Of a stretch of DNA of 64,000 nt, positions 2,342 to 56,953 are shown in pieces. The notes beneath the pieces are model-generated. The model did not search any database. It was not told where the DNA came from and was given only the letters and a program-made list of their open reading frames with translations. Each line of letters opens with the position of its first letter. Within the stretch, counting starts at the first letter, position 1. The translations under genes were made by a program, and so were the position numbers. The DNA is from a virus (taxonomy: Duplodnaviria > Caudoviricetes). Location: the IMG/VR virus record IMGVR_UViG_3300046474_000147, positions 1,437-65,436 of that record; one strand, written 5' to 3'.

Positions 2342-2371
2342 TTGACAAGGAAAAACCGTGTCGCTTACTAT
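2342..2371 (+). promoter_or_regulatory. Sigma70 promoter P-right containing operator A (2344..2362)
   Basis: TTGACA-18-TACTAT; embeds GACAAGGAAAAACCGTGTC. Confidence 0.8.
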
Positions 2372-3062: not shown

Positions 3063-3959
3063 ATGAAACGAGTTCTAGACAACAACGCCCAGGTGGCGCA
3101 CTACTTCGCCAACAACGTACAAACGGAAGGTACGGGCTCCAATTTCTTTTTCCGTAATGGCAAACTGTACAGCTACGGACTGCACTTCTGCATTGCTCGC
3201 CGCTTGCCGAACGATGTTTTCGTGTTCACTACGCGCACCTACAGCACCTCAACATCAAAGCACCTCATGTATGCGCGCGCCGCGTTGAATCACAAGCGCA
3301 AGGTGTATTGCTACGATCCAAGCGCGACGGCGGCCAGTAACAAAGAAGCGGCGCAAATCGCAATCAATGCCGAACTGGTCGCCAGTGAAACTAAGGCGCG
3401 CATTCGTCAAACTACGCGCGACGCACACAAGGCCCGCGCGTTGATCCTGGCCGAACAATTTAACGAATACCTTGCCGCACTGCCGGAAGATGAACGCGCC
3501 AATGTCGTGCCGTTCGATGTGTCGGGCCTGGATGAAATGCGCGCGGCCATGCAGCGCGAAGAGGCGCGCAAGCGCGAAGAGGCGCGCAAGCGCGAAGAGG
3601 CGGCGCAAGAGGCGGCGCGCGAATATATGGACGACTGGCGCAACGATCCAACGATGCGGACTCAAGGCATGTTTTCGTTGCCGCCAGTGTTGCGATTGAA
3701 TGGCGGCGTTATCCAGACTTCACACGGCGCAGAAATTCCCGTTGCCGATGCGCGCGCACTGTGGCCTGTAATTCTTAGCGTGAAAGCGGGCGAACGCACT
3801 AGCGAAGATGCCGCGCGCCTGGTGCGCCGCCTGGGCGTCTATACCTTGAACGAGATTCGCGCCGATGGTTCTATCAAGGTAGGTTGCCATGACATCGCAT
3901 GGTGCGAGATTGAGCGCATGGCTGTTGTTCTTGGCCTGGCCGATGAGGTGCAAGCATGA
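3063..3959 (+). CDS. Hypothetical early phage protein
   Basis: 298 aa, RBS GAGAGGA; LYSYGLHF and IQTSHGAEIP...VGCHDI blocks. Confidence 0.8.
   Translation: MKRVLDNNAQVAHYFANNVQTEGTGSNFFFRNGKLYSYGLHFCIARRLPNDVFVFTTRTYSTSTSKHLMYARAALNHKRKVYCYDPSATAASNKEAAQIAINAELVASETKARIRQTTRDAHKARALILAEQFNEYLAALPEDERANVVPFDVSGLDEMRAAMQREEARKREEARKREEAAQEAAREYMDDWRNDPTMRTQGMFSLPPVLRLNGGVIQTSHGAEIPVADARALWPVILSVKAGERTSEDAARLVRRLGVYTLNEIRADGSIKVGCHDIAWCEIERMAVVLGLADEVQA
3554..3608 (+). repeat. 18-bp in-frame tandem repeat (REEARK, about 3 copies)
   Basis: GCGCGAAGAGGCGCGCAA twice plus a degenerate third copy. Confidence 0.85.
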
Positions 3960-4351
3960 ACCGCAAACACACCATCGCAATGTCCGCATTGCATCGCATC
4001 GCCAACCTGGCGTTCCCTGCGCTGAATGATCTTGTGATGACTGCGCGCACTGCCATTGAGGAAATCAAGGCAACGAAGGAATTCCGCATTACTGCGCGCA
4101 CTTGGTATGGCAAAAACGGCGGTGAATTTCGCGCCGAACTGTGCGACGTTGAAAGCGGCAACAAGTTGATTACCGTATCGGGCACGACGCGGGGAAGTGA
4201 TGCGTGGTCCTATGCGATGCGCGACGCCATGCACGCACAAAGGCCCGATCTGTTCCCCGATCACGAAAAAGGCCATCCGACGATTTACTTCCGCGATGTG
4301 TGCAACGTGGATTACGAACACACGGAAGTTCAACGCAAGCGCGATTTGTAA
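3956..4351 (+). CDS. Hypothetical protein
   Basis: 131 aa, ATGA overlap with the upstream gene. Confidence 0.75.
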   Translation: MNRKHTIAMSALHRIANLAFPALNDLVMTARTAIEEIKATKEFRITARTWYGKNGGEFRAELCDVESGNKLITVSGTTRGSDAWSYAMRDAMHAQRPDLFPDHEKGHPTIYFRDVCNVDYEHTEVQRKRDL

Positions 4352-12080: not shown

Positions 12081-12157
12081 GTTTTGCAAAATGCGTTGAC
12101 CCACGGCGGTAAGTCAGCGCACCAAATAACCCGCCCTTTTTTTTAATGGAGTTCTGA

Positions 12158-12526
12158 ATGAGTATCGAACAACTGCTGCAAGGTGTCATCGAAGCACTGA
12201 ATGCCAACACCGCAGCCCTGCAAGGCAGCGCAGTCAAGACCACCGGCACCGGCACCTCGGGCGAAACCGGCACCGCATCGACCGGCAAGGGCGGCGACAA
12301 GGGCGGCGACAAGAAGAAAGGCCCGACCGTCGAAGAAATGCAGGCTGCGCTGACCGCCGTGAAAGAGAAGTTCGGCGCGGCCGAAGCCAAGTCGATCATC
12401 AAATCGGCCGGTGGCGTCGAGAAGATGAACGAGATCCCCGAGAAGAAGGTCAAGGCCGTGTTCGAGGCAGCCCAGGCCAAGCTGACCGCCGAGGACGACA
12501 CGACCGGCAGCGACGACGACATCTAA
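12158..12526 (+). CDS. Small protein of the type found upstream of DUF2800 genes (helical C-domain, acidic tail)
   Basis: 122 aa; G/T/K linker then a helical domain; ends GSDDDI. Confidence 0.8.
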   Translation: MSIEQLLQGVIEALNANTAALQGSAVKTTGTGTSGETGTASTGKGGDKGGDKKKGPTVEEMQAALTAVKEKFGAAEAKSIIKSAGGVEKMNEIPEKKVKAVFEAAQAKLTAEDDTTGSDDDI

Positions 12527-25714: not shown

Positions 25715-26770
25715 ATGGACATCGGACTTTTTGACCTCTACACCCTGCAAGACCTGTACCGTCGCATCAAGACGGCACCGCGCTTCTGGCTGAATTTCTA
25801 CCAGAAGCAGATCAACTTCGACGGCCGCAACATCATCTTCGAGAAGGTGTATGGCGACGACCGCAAGCTGGCGCCGTTCGCTGTGCCGACCGCCGCTGGC
25901 CGCCCGCAGAAGCTCGACGGCTTCGAGGCTTACACCCTGGCCCCGGCGTACATCAAGCTCAAGGACACGGTTGACCCGACCATGCACATCGAGCGCCTGC
26001 CGGGCGAAGCCCTGGGCGGAACCCTGACCATCCAGCAGCGCCGCGATGCGGTCAAGGTTGAACTGCTGCGCCGCCAGAAAGAGAAGGTGTTCAACACCTG
26101 GAACTGGCTGTCGGCCCGCGCAACCATCGACGGCAAGGTGACGATCAGCGGCGAGGACTACCCCGAAACCCTGATCGACTTCCGCCGCGACCCTGCGCTG
26201 ACCAAGGTGCTGACTGGTGGCGCAGCCTGGGACCAATCCACCGCGAAGCCGCTGGAAGATCTGCGCGACATGCGCATCGGCGCGCAAGAACTGTCCGGCG
26301 CTCGCGTCAGCCGTCACGTTTTCGGCGCGAACGCGTGGGAACTGTTCTGCGAGCGCGTGGACCTGACGGCCATGCAGAACTCGCTGAATCGCGGCGCGGG
26401 CCAGCAGGTCACCGTGTCCACGATCAGCGACGGCTACGGTGACACTATCGAGTACATGGGCTCGATCCAAGGTCTGAACGGCCAGGGCCGCCTGGAGTTT
26501 TGGGTCGATACCACTCGCTACATCGACGAAGCCGGTAACGAGCAGTTCTACCTCGACCAAGATACCGTGGTCGGCCTGTCGCCGGATCTCATGGGCGGCA
26601 CCCGCTGCTTCGGCGCGATCATGGATGCCAAGGCTGGCTTCCGCTCGCTCGACGTGTTCCAGAAGAATTGGGAAAACGAAGATCCGAGCGTCGAGTACCT
26701 GCTGATGCAGTCGGCTCCGCTGATGGTCCCGAAAGAGCCGAACGCGACCTACAAGATCAAGGTCAAGTAA
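25715..26770 (+). CDS. Major capsid protein (lambda gpE-like)
   Basis: 351 aa; KLAPFAVP, PAYIKLKD, QSAPLMVP. Confidence 0.9.
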   Translation: MDIGLFDLYTLQDLYRRIKTAPRFWLNFYQKQINFDGRNIIFEKVYGDDRKLAPFAVPTAAGRPQKLDGFEAYTLAPAYIKLKDTVDPTMHIERLPGEALGGTLTIQQRRDAVKVELLRRQKEKVFNTWNWLSARATIDGKVTISGEDYPETLIDFRRDPALTKVLTGGAAWDQSTAKPLEDLRDMRIGAQELSGARVSRHVFGANAWELFCERVDLTAMQNSLNRGAGQQVTVSTISDGYGDTIEYMGSIQGLNGQGRLEFWVDTTRYIDEAGNEQFYLDQDTVVGLSPDLMGGTRCFGAIMDAKAGFRSLDVFQKNWENEDPSVEYLLMQSAPLMVPKEPNATYKIKVK

Positions 26771-26793
26771 TCCGGCGAAAAGCAGTAAAGAAC

Positions 26794-26813
26794 GGGCGGG
26801 GGAAACCCCGCCC
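26794..26813 (+). terminator. GNRA hairpin after the capsid gene, weak U tract
   Basis: GGGCGGGG-GAAA-CCCCGCCC. Confidence 0.5.
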
Positions 26814-26856
26814 TCTCCGCATCACAACACACCCCTGACAAGTTTGGAGAACCAAC

Positions 26857-52697: not shown

Positions 52698-53147
52698 ATG
52701 GAACAGGGATCGAGTAATGAAAGAGCAGCGCCGGATCAACACGGCCTCCCCGAAGATCTGGCAGGCGACAGCCAGTGGGACGGCCAAGAGCGACGAACCG
52801 CACCAAGGGAGCCGAAATTGAAACTAGACCTCACCGTTAATATTCCGACCATGATCTCGCTGATCGTCTTGGTTGCGACTACTTCGGCGTCCGGCTTCCA
52901 GATGTATTACAACCTGCGCCAACAGCAGATGGCGACCGAATATGCTGTGTCGAATCTCACCAACCGTGTCGAGAAGGCCGAGTCGGCAATCGGCATTCTC
53001 AAGACCGAGCAGGTAGCGAGCACCAGCAGTCTGCGCGCAGAAGTAAAGCAGGATCTCGCTGAGATCAAGGGTCAGCTTAACGACTTGATCTTCGGTCGCC
53101 GTCCGCAGCAAGCCGCCCGATCCCAACTTCGTGAATGGAGCCGATAA
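52698..53147 (+). CDS. Single-TM coiled-coil protein heading the lysis cassette (holin or antiholin candidate)
   Basis: RBS GAGGGA; TM segment IPTMISLIVLVATTSASG; TAATG overlap with the endolysin. Confidence 0.6.
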   Translation: MEQGSSNERAAPDQHGLPEDLAGDSQWDGQERRTAPREPKLKLDLTVNIPTMISLIVLVATTSASGFQMYYNLRQQQMATEYAVSNLTNRVEKAESAIGILKTEQVASTSSLRAEVKQDLAEIKGQLNDLIFGRRPQQAARSQLREWSR

Positions 53148-53842
53148 TGAGCACCGCAACTCCGCGTGGTATCCGCAACCGCAATCCCGGCAACATCGAC
53201 TGGCACGAGAACACGAAATGGCAGGGTCTTGTCCCTTCCGGTGAGCGCACCGATCAACGCTTCTGCGAATTCAAAGATGCGGTGTGGGGCATCCGTGCTC
53301 TCGCAGTCCTGCTCATCAACTATCAGGACAAGTACGACATCAACACGGTGCGCGGCATCATCCATCGTTGGGCACCGAGCGTCGAGAACGACACGCGCGA
53401 ATACGTGTACGCCGTGTGCGACTCGTGCGATGTCGAAGCCGATGACCCGCTCAACCTGCACAGCTACGAGCACCTGCGCCCGCTGGTCGAAGCGATCATC
53501 TTCCACGAGAACGGACGCGGGCCGAAGTCCACGTTGAACTCGTGGTACGACATGAGCGTGATCGACGAGGCGCTGAAGCGCGCTGGCGTAGTCAAGACCG
53601 CCGCTGTCGTCGCTGCCATGCCGGTGACGAAAGAGACGGTGGCCGCGACCGGCACGGCGGGCCTGGGTGTCGCGCAGATCGCGGACGTTGCGCCGCAGGT
53701 GATGGATGCTATCGACAGCCAGCAGGATCACCTGTCGTCCGGCAGCTACGTGCGCATCGCATTCGCGGTGCTCACTATCGGCCTGGCGGCGTTCATCGCG
53801 TACAGCCAGGTCAAGAAGCATCAATCCGGCGTGGTGGCGTGA
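53147..53842 (+). CDS. Endolysin (lysozyme-like RGIRNxNPGNI family) with a C-terminal TM helix
   Basis: ATG at 53147 after GGAG; WAPSVENDT, IIFHENG; C-terminal IAFAVLTIGLAAFIAY. Confidence 0.75.
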   Translation: MSTATPRGIRNRNPGNIDWHENTKWQGLVPSGERTDQRFCEFKDAVWGIRALAVLLINYQDKYDINTVRGIIHRWAPSVENDTREYVYAVCDSCDVEADDPLNLHSYEHLRPLVEAIIFHENGRGPKSTLNSWYDMSVIDEALKRAGVVKTAAVVAAMPVTKETVAATGTAGLGVAQIADVAPQVMDAIDSQQDHLSSGSYVRIAFAVLTIGLAAFIAYSQVKKHQSGVVA

Positions 53843-54141
53843 TGGTGCCGCTGTTCGTCGTCGAGAAGTTGAAGTCGTGGGCGCTGACGTTCCTGGCCGT
53901 TCTGGCGGTCCTCGTCGGTGCCTACGCAATCGGTGGCCGCAAAGCACGGCGCGCGGCTGAAGCGAAACATAACTACGATGAGGCGCTGCGCGCTGGTGCC
54001 GGTGCCAAGGGGGTTCATGATGTGGAAGTCGAAGTTCGCAAGCTGCCTACTGGTGGCGCTGCTGACCAGCTTCGCCGCGACTGGATGCGGAACGATAGCG
54101 CCAACGCCAACGCAGGTGGCACTGGCGTCAACCGTTCCTGA
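53842..54141 (+). CDS. Inner-membrane spanin (Rz-like)
   Basis: TGATG overlap; N-terminal TM followed by a helical domain. Confidence 0.75.
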   Translation: MVPLFVVEKLKSWALTFLAVLAVLVGAYAIGGRKARRAAEAKHNYDEALRAGAGAKGVHDVEVEVRKLPTGGAADQLRRDWMRNDSANANAGGTGVNRS

Positions 54142-54256
54142 CTTCTGCGCGACCGCGAAGCCGATCTACATTGGCAAGAACGATGTGATCTCGGACGACA
54201 CGGCGCAGCAGATCTTGGCGCACAATCTGACAGGCCGCAAGCTGTGCGGCTGGTGA
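54017..54256 (+). CDS. Outer-membrane lipoprotein spanin (Rz1-like)
   Basis: Overlaps Rz in another frame; signal peptide with Cys at FAATGC; start 54017 or 54020. Confidence 0.75.
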   Translation: MMWKSKFASCLLVALLTSFAATGCGTIAPTPTQVALASTVPDFCATAKPIYIGKNDVISDDTAQQILAHNLTGRKLCGW

Positions 54257-54270
54257 TGAAAGGGGGTGAC

Positions 54271-54298
54271 TTGATCTCGTAACGCTCGCTGCTACAAT
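54271..54298 (+). promoter_or_regulatory. Extended -10 sigma70 promoter
   Basis: TTGATC-16-TACAAT with TG at 54290-54291; inverted repeat AACGCTC/GAGCGTT spans the -10. Confidence 0.65.
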
Positions 54299-54303
54299 GA
54301 GCG

Positions 54304-54364
54304 TTCCGTTAAAAAGAGAAGGTGCTTGGCCGGTGTGGAGAGATCCGCACCGGCCTTTTTCTTT
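54304..54364 (+). ncRNA. Candidate trans-acting antisense sRNA, about 60 nt
   Basis: The promoter fires into no ORF; 5' TCCGTTAAAAAGAG is complementary to several phage RBS leaders; ends in an intrinsic terminator. Confidence 0.55.
54328..54364 (+). terminator. Intrinsic terminator
   Basis: GGCCGGTGTGGA-GAGA-TCCGCACCGGCC then TTTTTCTTT. Confidence 0.85.
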
Positions 54365-54365
54365 A

Positions 54366-54755
54366 CTAGTCCGACGCGCGGCGCGCAAGGCGCTGCGGAC
54401 CTTCCCGCAACTGATCCTCGTCGATCCAGTCCTCGCAGAAGCGGCCGGTCTTGTCCGAGTACGCCACCTGATAGCGCGGCAGGCGCGAATTCACATGCTC
54501 CGCGCGACCGCGCACCTTGCCTACAACCTGCGTGGTCGTTATCGTCACGCGCTCGTTCAACTCGAACTTGAACTTGATGGACTGATCCCCATTCGCCTTG
54601 CTCGGCGGCTTAGGCGGATCTGCTGCCGGTGCGCCACCATTGTTGCCCGCTGCTGCGGCTGCCTCGCGCGCAGCTTTTGCGCCAGGCTTCGGACCCGGCT
54701 TGCTGCCGCGAGTTTTGCGGGGCTTCTTCACTTTCGGTTCACCTGTTGTTGCCAT
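54366..54755 (-). CDS. Basic low-complexity N-terminus with a small beta-barrel-like C-domain
   Basis: 129 aa; K/P/A-rich then FKFELNERVTI...EDWIDEDQL; RBS ACGGAGAAG. Confidence 0.75.
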   Translation of the reverse strand: MATTGEPKVKKPRKTRGSKPGPKPGAKAAREAAAAAGNNGGAPAADPPKPPSKANGDQSIKFKFELNERVTITTTQVVGKVRGRAEHVNSRLPRYQVAYSDKTGRFCEDWIDEDQLREGPQRLARRASD

Positions 54756-54768
54756 CTTCTTCTCCGTT

Positions 54769-54794
54769 AAAAAGCGCAGCGGAATCCCCGCTGC
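54769..54794 (-). terminator. Intrinsic terminator whose U tract abuts the next RBS
   Basis: Minus strand GCAGCGG-GGATT-CCGCTGC-GCTTTTT-AACGGAG. Confidence 0.65.
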
Positions 54795-55121: not shown

Positions 55122-55500
55122 GGCCGTTCTCCGCGAGATCGCACAGCCCGGCGAACGTGGTGGCGGCGACCATGCGCGCATGCAGCAATGCGGCCTTATC
55201 GTCGGCAGGCGCGCTCTTCATGTAGCCGAGTTCCTTGAAACGTGGATCTGCGCTAGACATGAAGATCGCCATTGACTTCGAGGTAAGCATTTCGTAGCGC
55301 GCGCCCATCAACAGTGCTGATTCGAGGATCAGCGCATCGGCCGGATTTGCGAGCGGGCGGAACGTCGCGATCACGTCGGGCGGAACGACGCTGCGATCCA
55401 CGCGGATAAGGCCGTGCGAAGTCTCCGACCACTCGAACGCGGTCAAGTCCATTCCGATGATGCGGGCCGCTGCTCGTGTCACTTCTTCGAGGCGATTCAT
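55108..55500 (-). CDS. Hypothetical protein
   Basis: 130 aa, overlaps its neighbours. Confidence 0.7.
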   Translation of the reverse strand: MNRLEEVTRAAARIIGMDLTAFEWSETSHGLIRVDRSVVPPDVIATFRPLANPADALILESALLMGARYEMLTSKSMAIFMSSADPRFKELGYMKSAPADDKAALLHARMVAATTFAGLCDLAENGHVAG

Positions 55501-56246
55501 TCTGCGCCACCGTTCAGGGAAACGCGCACAATGCCGCTGTCGTCCAGTGGGTCACCGGCATACGGTGCGCCGAGCGGGCCGTCGTAGAAGCCAACCAGCG
55601 AGTCAGGCGGCGGGGGTGCTGCGTCGAGGATCGTGGAGAGGCTGAATGCGATTTGCTTCCTCTGCTCGTCGCCGCATCGCGCAAGTGCGGCCTCGATCCA
55701 TTCCGGCGTTGCGACCTTCAGGATCGCCTCGATCCATTCCGGGGTCGGCTTTTCCGGCACAAGCTTGAAGCCTGCGGGCACGTTGACACGCATGCGCGCC
55801 GGGCGCAGGCGGCGCTCTGGCACCTGGCCGTGTACCGCGCCGTTGCGCATCATCCAGCCAACCACGGCGTCCGCGTCCGCGTTCTTCAGGTTGAACTTCA
55901 GGATCGAACCGGCCTTGTAATACACGACCGCCTTGCGATTCAGCTTGTCGAGCGGGCCTGGTTCCCACTCGATGCGCCGGATCGACTCGTACACGAGTTG
56001 GTACGGCACGCCGCTCATGCTGTCGATGACGTTGAAGATGGTCCTGTCGTAACGGCTGAGTCCGTTCTGCGCCAGCCAGCTACGCACGCGGCGCACGCCG
56101 TCGATGCCGATGATGTGCGACTTCGGATATTCCCCTTTACGTTCAACCTGAATCGTGTTGATGTCGACGAAGGTGACGCGCGCATTGGCGTCGAGCGTAA
56201 CCATCGCGTCGTCGCTCTCGTCTTTCACTTTAATCGTTTCACTCAT
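55497..56246 (-). CDS. Hypothetical mosaic protein
   Basis: ATG at 56246 after GAGGA; VPAGFKLVPEKPTPEWIEA segment with duplicated PEWIEA. Confidence 0.7.
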   Translation of the reverse strand: MSETIKVKDESDDAMVTLDANARVTFVDINTIQVERKGEYPKSHIIGIDGVRRVRSWLAQNGLSRYDRTIFNVIDSMSGVPYQLVYESIRRIEWEPGPLDKLNRKAVVYYKAGSILKFNLKNADADAVVGWMMRNGAVHGQVPERRLRPARMRVNVPAGFKLVPEKPTPEWIEAILKVATPEWIEAALARCGDEQRKQIAFSLSTILDAAPPPPDSLVGFYDGPLGAPYAGDPLDDSGIVRVSLNGGAE

Positions 56247-56611: not shown

Positions 56612-56899
56612 TCAGAATCCTTTGAACTTGAATACCTCGCCCGCGATCAGGTATGCGATCACAAGCGCCACAGCGACCACCGCGACAAGCGCAACGATCC
56701 AGAGTCGAGTGAACTCGTCGTCGTCGCGCACGACATAAGAGGTGACACGCACAGCACCCATGAGCAGCAGGACGCCGCAGAGGGTGACGTACGCGGCAGG
56801 GAACGATGGTCGCGACCACAGGCCACCGATAAGCGACGCCATCGTTCCAACGCTGAACGCGGCGGCGATCATGAGGCATTTGAGAATGTTATCGAGCAT
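56612..56899 (-). CDS. Small membrane protein with three predicted TM helices
   Basis: 95 aa hydrophobic; RBS ACGGAGAG. Confidence 0.7.
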   Translation of the reverse strand: MLDNILKCLMIAAAFSVGTMASLIGGLWSRPSFPAAYVTLCGVLLLMGAVRVTSYVVRDDDEFTRLWIVALVAVVAVALVIAYLIAGEVFKFKGF

Positions 56900-56912
56900 T
56901 GTGCTCTCCGTT

Positions 56913-56942
56913 AAAAAGAACCGGGCCGCGCGTGCGACCCGG
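56913..56942 (-). terminator. Intrinsic terminator whose U tract abuts the next RBS
   Basis: Minus strand CCGGGTCGC-ACGC-GCGGCCCGG-TTCTTTTT-AACGGAG. Confidence 0.7.
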
Positions 56943-56953
56943 CGTGCTGCGAA

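Follow-up and report, generated by a model that had tools for sequence, protein, structure and literature searches.

Trans-encoded base-pairing small RNAs such as RybB, OmrA/B and MicC carry a seed at their 5′ end and finish in a Rho-independent terminator. Others, such as DapZ and MicL, derive from 3′ UTRs, where they have a promoter of their own and share the terminator of the mRNA. In phage T4 a single protein, RegA, shuts off the translation of dispersed early phage mRNAs at their ribosome-binding sites. Among RNAs of phage origin, the CI RNA of P4 and the CB RNA of N15 are related to the c4 antisense RNA of P1 and P7; RNAs of this type are processed from the transcript that they control and serve the immunity of temperate or plasmid prophages. 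The short complementary stretches of c4 bind repeated sites, including the ribosome-binding site, and block translation (PMC12197685), and the OOP RNA of lambda and the sar RNA of P22 act as cis-antisense phage RNAs (PMC12197685). Few phage small RNAs are understood, and those few come mostly from temperate phages or prophages and act in cis or on host genes (PMC12197685).

The locus described here lies in a window of 64,000 bases, the whole stretch of DNA that was analysed, taken from an IMG/VR virus record of 65,436 bases whose terminal repeats indicate a complete genome. We propose, with a probability of about 0.5, that a short unit behind its lysis genes encodes a plus-strand, trans-acting anti-leader RNA of ~60 nt that would act on a few genes of the same phage, repressing their translation, and that would be transcribed from a promoter of its own and/or carried at the 3′ end of the lysis transcript. 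The candidate resembles RybB, OmrA/B and MicC in being short, with a putative promoter of its own, no ORF, a conserved single-stranded 5′ seed and a terminator with a U tail, and in having several predicted targets at or near Shine-Dalgarno sequences; it differs from them in being phage-encoded and aimed at the phage's own genes, and it has no sequence relation to them. Like DapZ and MicL, it follows immediately on the final gene of an operon whose terminator it shares, so that the 3′ end of the mRNA carries the seed, but its promoter-like box follows the stop codon rather than lying inside the upstream ORF, and the operon is a phage lysis cassette. With c4 it shares short complementary stretches to repeated sites in a candidate phage RNA; unlike c4, CI and CB, it is convergent to the target operon, with targets 0.4–11 kb away, and has no Rfam match. 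Like OOP and sar, it would be a small phage RNA (~60–80 nt) with a strong terminator, predicted here to act by pairing, but those two overlap their target gene on the opposite strand, whereas the targets of the candidate lie elsewhere, at 54.77, 56.9, 1.2 and 12.1 kb. RegA shares the proposed logic, although RegA is a protein and the factor proposed here is an RNA. The best reading of its kind is thus a trans-acting base-pairing sRNA, associated with a 3′ UTR, that would be a member of no described family and would have functional parallels in P1 c4 and T4 RegA.

The window belongs to an uncultured, Chi-like phage placed near the Casjensviridae by protein similarity. The best cultured matches of its endolysin and o-spanin include Chivirus and other Casjensviridae (~36–58% identity); searches of cultured phages for DNA similar to the window, in near or distant mode, returned no match, and the Chi-like Salmonella phage 37 has no intergenic space 3′ of its spanin gene. 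Genes for replication, virion and lysis functions occupy the plus strand from 12158 to 54256. Minus-strand genes run from ~1915 down to 1, continue across the record start into 63978, and end at 54366. No integrase or immunity region was seen. Three near-consensus σ70 promoter-like sites mark early units, at 1991–1962 (minus strand), 2342–2371 (plus strand) and 57332–57304 (minus strand), the first and last of these being the promoter-like sites of the leftward block. Relatives were found by an endolysin search and an o-spanin alignment search; they are uncultured phages of 61–68 kb, of which nine whole genomes and one fragment were compared, giving 11 genomes with the window for motif scans. 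Proteins of the window are mostly ~30–70% identical to those encoded in the relatives' genomes, and about 50–70% identical among the window, G005, G006 and G007, the four phages that share the seed described below (the seed phages).

The o-spanin (Rz1-like) gene (53918–54256, plus strand), whose translation contains a lipobox-like TGC motif and whose tblastn matches are annotated as Rz1/Rz-like spanin, is the last gene of the late/lysis block. A gap of 109 nt separates its stop codon (54254–54256) from that of the last leftward gene (54366–54368). The element within this gap (54258–54364) overlaps no gene and ends 2 nt before the stop codon of gene 54366–54755. The o-spanin transcript must traverse the element to reach its terminator, and the late transcript, which has no other, certainly carries the whole unit at its 3′ end. 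The unit is kept behind the o-spanin gene, or behind one extra small ORF, in about 9–10 diverged uncultured phages, and a weaker form of the promoter–terminator unit occurs in two further relatives. It opens with an invariant GAAAGGRGGTGAY-NNN-ATCTC block and a TAnAAT/TATAAT hexamer; beyond a stretch that varies come a hairpin with a GNRA loop and then a T run. Among 88 sources, a covariance model of the unit (R1) found it only in the window, in the eight related loci used to build the model and, weakly, in G010. No Rfam family reached its gathering score in the window, and looser E-values brought up nothing relevant, whether around the element or in six related loci. When IMG/VR and JGI metagenomes were scanned for the pattern of the promoter–terminator unit, only the known relatives and chance matches came back, and the GNRA-hairpin pattern in GTDB genomes found unrelated terminators (Streptomyces and others).

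Spacing between the o-spanin gene and the element differs in three of the relatives: G006 and G007 have an extra small ORF (MWT..) there (L182 4343–4500 and L186 4337–4495), and G005 has ~45 nt of extra non-coding sequence. Elsewhere in the window, a GNRA-loop hairpin without a T run, GGGCGGGGGAAACCCCGCCC (26785–26815), lies directly 3′ of the probable major capsid gene (25715–26770); it matches the covariance model of the element weakly and is a different unit.

The element is non-coding as judged from its sequence. The stretch from the promoter-like box to the terminator contains no ORF, and the candidate frames of both strands lack conservation. The possibility that the minus strand holds an ORF or a functional ribosome-binding site was considered and rejected: in the window a TTG is followed immediately by TAG, the frames differ among the four seed phages, and the ATT/ATG start candidates are not conserved. 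With no usable minus-strand start and with differing frames, the conservation of the seed is not that of a ribosome-binding site. On the plus strand, the left block amounts to a complete Shine-Dalgarno sequence (AAGGAGGTGA), and downstream of it a conserved start codon is lacking; a small ORF in this place was likewise rejected, its TTG being present in some of the phages only.

What the element does encode at its downstream end is an intrinsic terminator (54328–54364, plus strand) with a 12-bp stem, a GAGA loop and a TTTTTCTTT tail, common to the lysis operon and the proposed small RNA. Its hairpin (54328–54355) lies 29 nt downstream of the promoter-like box. Six of its pairs show compensatory changes, and its U-G pairs would be A-C mismatches on the opposite strand, which together with the T run makes it a structure of the plus-strand RNA. 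The predicted fold of the 62-nt RNA has a z-score of −5.1. Upstream of the hairpin, a purine tract, AAAAAGAGAAGG (54311–54322, plus strand), agrees with A-R-N repeats and could base-pair with the U tail at the 3′ end; we infer from it a possible link to Hfq. G004, G008 and G009 share with the seed phages a purine-rich, GAAGG-type motif.

At the upstream end of the element, the invariant left block GAAAGGGGGTGAC..ATCTC, of the form GAAAGGRGGTGAY-NNN-ATCTC (54258–54278, plus strand), is identical in nine of the nine aligned elements (the window, L002, L005 and L182–L187). In the plus-strand RNA it could form a 5-bp hairpin, H0 (GRGGU/AUCUC, with two G-U pairs), for which two-sided covariation was not found among the aligned elements. 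The distance between this block and the −10 box varies from 9 to 14 nt, so that the block does not represent one fixed −35 box. The σ70-type promoter-like site overlaps its end (54271–54298, plus strand): TTGATC at 54271–54276 is followed by a 16-nt spacer and by TGC and TACAAT at 54290–54298, an extended −10 arrangement that matches the consensus at 9 of 12 positions, with the TG. The same hexamer also lies within the loop of a conserved hairpin, H1, formed by the inverted repeat AACGCTC/GAGCGTT (54281–54305, plus strand). Across relatives the H1 arms stay complementary while taking at least five different sequences, with a loop that ranges from 11 to 30 nt, and in the four seed phages two pairs are changed on both sides; such variation in spacing favours an RNA hairpin over a protein operator. 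The left arm of H1 lies upstream of any start that the −10 box could direct, so H1 can fold only in read-through RNA from the lysis operon, and the hexamer could be part of a 3′ UTR structure rather than of a promoter.

This last point leads to an alternative that we regard as unlikely, namely that there is no separate promoter and that the unit, ~110 nt long, serves the late lysis transcript as a structured 3′ UTR and terminator. It would then consist of H0, H1 with TAnAAT in its loop, a single-stranded stretch and the terminator, and any anti-leader action would come from the UTR or from a fragment cut from it. Such an arrangement agrees with the obligatory passage of the late transcript through the unit, with the diversity of complementary H1 arms and the position of the left one, with the variable distance from left block to hexamer, and with the G-U pairs of H0, H1 and the terminator, all of which fit the plus strand. 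It explains the hexamer poorly, however. An A+T-rich TAnAAT/TATAAT that stays constant in loops of 11–30 nt, with TGn before it in five elements, looks like a −10 element and not like a loop motif. Positions T1, A2, A4, A5 and T6 are kept in 11 of 11 elements of this clade of ~60% G+C. The hexamer is TACAAT in the window, TAAAAT in G005 and TAGAAT in G006 and G007, each preceded by TGn, and TATAAT in G001, G002, G003, G004, G008, G009 and G010. In G001, G003 and G004 a perfect TATAAT has GTGACT 17 nt upstream and a G exactly seven bases downstream, which also speaks against a purely structural role. Against a simple promoter stand the register of the −35 hexamer, which differs among relatives, the variable position of the left block, the inverted repeat around the hexamer and, in the seed phages, a pyrimidine as the seventh base after the hexamer (T in the window), which leaves the exact position of the predicted RNA start uncertain. 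We take an internal promoter in the unit to be likely as judged from these sequences. The six bases between hexamer and seed (54299–54304) are G+C-rich, reading GAGCGT, GTGCGC, GAGCGC and GGGCGC in the window and G005–G007, respectively; they resemble the discriminators of growth-rate-controlled promoters and also form the right arm of the inverted repeat.

The feature that sets the four seed phages apart is the anti-leader seed itself, TTCCGTTAAAAAGAG (54304–54318, plus strand), which coincides with the predicted 5′ end of the RNA or adjoins it and is unpaired in the predicted folds. Just after the TGnTAnAAT box, TCCGTTAA is invariant in the window, G005, G006 and G007, and so is the seed core UCCGUUAA, despite the divergence of these phages. 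The distance from hexamer to seed is fixed in all four, and the seed is followed by the purine tract and a variable spacer. When the 5′ 26 nt of the RNA are compared with the whole genome, the longest exact complements fall at gene starts in every one of the four phages: 14, 13 and 12 nt at leaders in the window; in G005, 12 nt ahead of a gene for 338 aa and 10 nt ahead of the gene that opens the replication block; 13 and 10 nt in G006; and 12 and 10 nt in G007. With lengths of 10–14 nt, these own-leader matches span the GGAG in two to four leaders per seed phage. Exact matches were used instead of a ranking by RNAduplex energies, which was noisy in this G+C-rich genome.

Chance is an unlikely origin for these matches, as indicated by two counts. 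With at most one mismatch, CCGTTAAAAA had 6 matches against 1.2 expected, and none of 100 shuffles reached 6. Random 26-nt windows had at least one 12-nt complement in a translation-initiation region in 0.3–0.5% of cases (0.3% in this genome) and at least two in no more than 0.03% (0.03% in this genome), against a background in which the automatic gene-start mask missed some true leaders. One further 12-nt complement, at 26078–26089, falls inside a gene and looks like chance. Across the 11 genomes, every copy of TTAAYGGAR is located at a gene leader or in the element; the leftward operon of each seed phage has two to three such leaders, and that of phages with another element 5′ region has none.

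Three leaders of minus-strand genes in the window are exact complements of the candidate RNA. The longest match, 14 nt at 1236–1249, is in the leader of gene 612–1223 (203 aa, PHROG 8970). A 13-nt match at 56907–56919 lies in the leader of a gene for a protein with three transmembrane segments (3-TM; 56612–56899), directly after a terminator-like hairpin (56943–56920), and a 12-nt match at 54763–54774 lies in the leader of gene 54366–54755 (129 aa, P0001), directly after a hairpin at 54794–54776. Each complement ends in the GGA of GGAG, 6–11 nt before ATG. Because two of the three leaders stand directly behind terminator-like hairpins, the string shared on the minus strand is a U tract followed by a Shine-Dalgarno sequence. 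The leaders at 1249 and 54776 have an alternative predicted fold in which the U run is paired to the purine tract that surrounds the Shine-Dalgarno sequence, so this run may have a role of its own. A possible fourth target is the leader at 12137–12150 (plus strand) of gene 12158–12526, the first of the plus-strand replication block, which can form 14 pairs, three of them G-U. Homologous leaders carry TTAACGGAG in G005 and G007 and TAAACGGAG in G006, but this target is the weakest, as the leader type TTAATGGAG occurs also in G001 and G004, which lack the seed. The motif was not found in the other leaders of the window. The earlier note had described this unit, with TTGATC-16-TGC-TACAAT, a 12-bp GNRA-loop terminator within ~30 nt and no ORF between them, together with the three exactly antisense leaders and the wobble-containing fourth; all of these are present where it placed them, the fourth having been checked by hand.

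Upstream of the first replication-block gene, the four seed phages keep a hairpin of the form GGCGG-(~19–22 nt including CAGCGCAC)-CCGCC, followed by a pyrimidine run and then by a TTAAYGGAG leader (window 12085–12157; G005 55500–55590; G006 ~3890–3960; G007 ~53090–53165). A reading of the leaders as boxA/nut antitermination sites was rejected, as in all 11 genomes every copy, whether in a leader or in the element, differs from the 12-nt consensus GCUCUUUAACAA by more than two mismatches.

All three genes with exact matches are accessory, and homologues are absent in G001–G004. The 3-TM gene has no homologue in any relative examined; in G005, a leader homologous to that of the 3-TM gene directly precedes the next gene. 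A homologue of gene 54366–54755 is absent from the relatives, and its product P0001, used as a query, found no related loci. For the 203-aa protein, G005 encodes a homologue of 86% identity whose gene has a different leader, and this identity, far above the ~30–70% of most proteins, suggests a recent exchange. In G005 the leader with the first codons (MKT..) heads a different gene, of 338 aa. The leaders thus lie at mosaic junctions, where they have been rejoined to different genes, and the recombination history of the motif is real, whatever its present function.

That history could be taken as the whole explanation. No regulation between RNAs would then be involved; a leader cassette, made up of the U tract of a terminator and a Shine-Dalgarno sequence, would have spread by recombination, and the copy in the element would be an inverted relic, kept at most as an A/T run that aids a bidirectional terminator. 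Read on the minus strand, the element does present a hairpin, 10 nt and CTCTTTTTAACGGAA, in the same order as at 56943–56905 and 54794–54761, and the A run in the window pairs with the U tail. The accessory nature of the three targets in the window and the joining of one leader to different genes in different phages are also what such spreading would leave behind. We nevertheless consider this decidedly improbable: in four phages whose neighbouring spacer bases vary, TCCGTTAA does not, not even where it is complementary to GGAG, and on the minus strand the motif is followed by neither a start codon nor a conserved ORF. In addition, the T run lies 10–14 nt from the hairpin, too far for the tail of a minus-strand terminator, and a shared stretch of 12–14 nt is short for gene conversion.

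That TTAACGGAG is instead the binding site of a protein (a RegA-like RNA repressor or a DNA-binding regulator), with a decoy or autoregulatory copy in the element, is very improbable: the motif does recur at defined places, and RegA, which represses many early mRNAs of T4 at their ribosome-binding sites, is a precedent, but the leader copies are all gene-oriented at Shine-Dalgarno distance and the element copy alone is inverted, beside a plus-strand promoter-like box and terminator, as an antisense RNA predicts, an RNA-binding protein would require a minus-strand read-through transcript, and no candidate protein was found.

If the unit does encode an anti-leader RNA, as we favour, the RNA would be made from its own promoter, and the same sequence would also be present at the 3′ end of the late lysis transcript. 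The seed would pair with leaders of the form U-rich/AAC/GGAG, cover the Shine-Dalgarno sequence and block the initiation of translation, possibly followed by decay of the mRNA. The affected set would be small and dispersed, made up mostly of accessory genes that occupy variable slots in the leftward early operon, with the first gene of the replication block as a possible further member. Since late transcripts carry the seed, repression should grow as late transcription rises, and an early-to-late switch, which the earlier note had offered as one possible use of the RNA, is plausible for the reason that the seed is necessarily present at the 3′ end of the late lysis transcript as well. Its other suggestion, that the RNA is an antitoxin to the membrane protein, is rejected, since only the window has the inserted 3-TM gene and G005–G007 keep the seed without it; the seed of G005 in the absence of the 3-TM gene likewise led us to discard a type I toxin-antitoxin system.

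Comparison of relatives strengthens parts of this picture and restricts others. The idea of a trans-acting seed sRNA gains from the conserved unit, the invariant seed and the own-leader matches in four phages, and loses some of its reach with the weakness of the fourth target. The four seed phages may form one clade, however, and being possibly one lineage they are not four independent observations. Covariation of seed and leaders in related phages, for which the earlier note had called, is seen once: G005 has TTCTTAAC in both its seed and its best leader, where the other seed phages have T runs. The seed of G006 matches a leader of the window over 15 nt, and matches within a phage are not always longer than those between phages, so the covariation rests on the single event in G005. 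A similar division applies to relatives that lack the seed. Their leftward operons have no such leaders, as expected if seed and leaders belong together, but G001 and G004 keep TTAATGGAG/TTAACGGAG leaders without it. In the elements of G001–G004, no complement of 11 nt or more was found at any leader, and the elements of G001, G002, G003, G004 and G008 retain the promoter-like box and the terminator. As G001–G004 keep the scaffold without a leader complement, the general function of the unit is not anti-leader pairing.

A broader and more tentative proposal, which we would call doubtful at present, is that in this clade of uncultured Chi-like phages one small RNA provides shared post-transcriptional control of exchangeable genes through a leader tag, a U-rich stretch followed by TTAACGGAG, that is read by base pairing. 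If this is true, accessory genes that enter variable slots would gain the temporal control of the phage without bringing a promoter of their own, which would give a simple account of coordinate control over mosaic accessory genes. A trans-acting RNA that represses several genes of its own phage would be an RNA counterpart of T4 RegA. In sister clades the retained scaffold bears other 5′ sequences, and evolution could thus retarget it to other mRNAs, possibly those of the host. With its conserved scaffold and exchangeable 5′ ends, the unit offers a small, testable system of ~110 nt of DNA and three short leaders.
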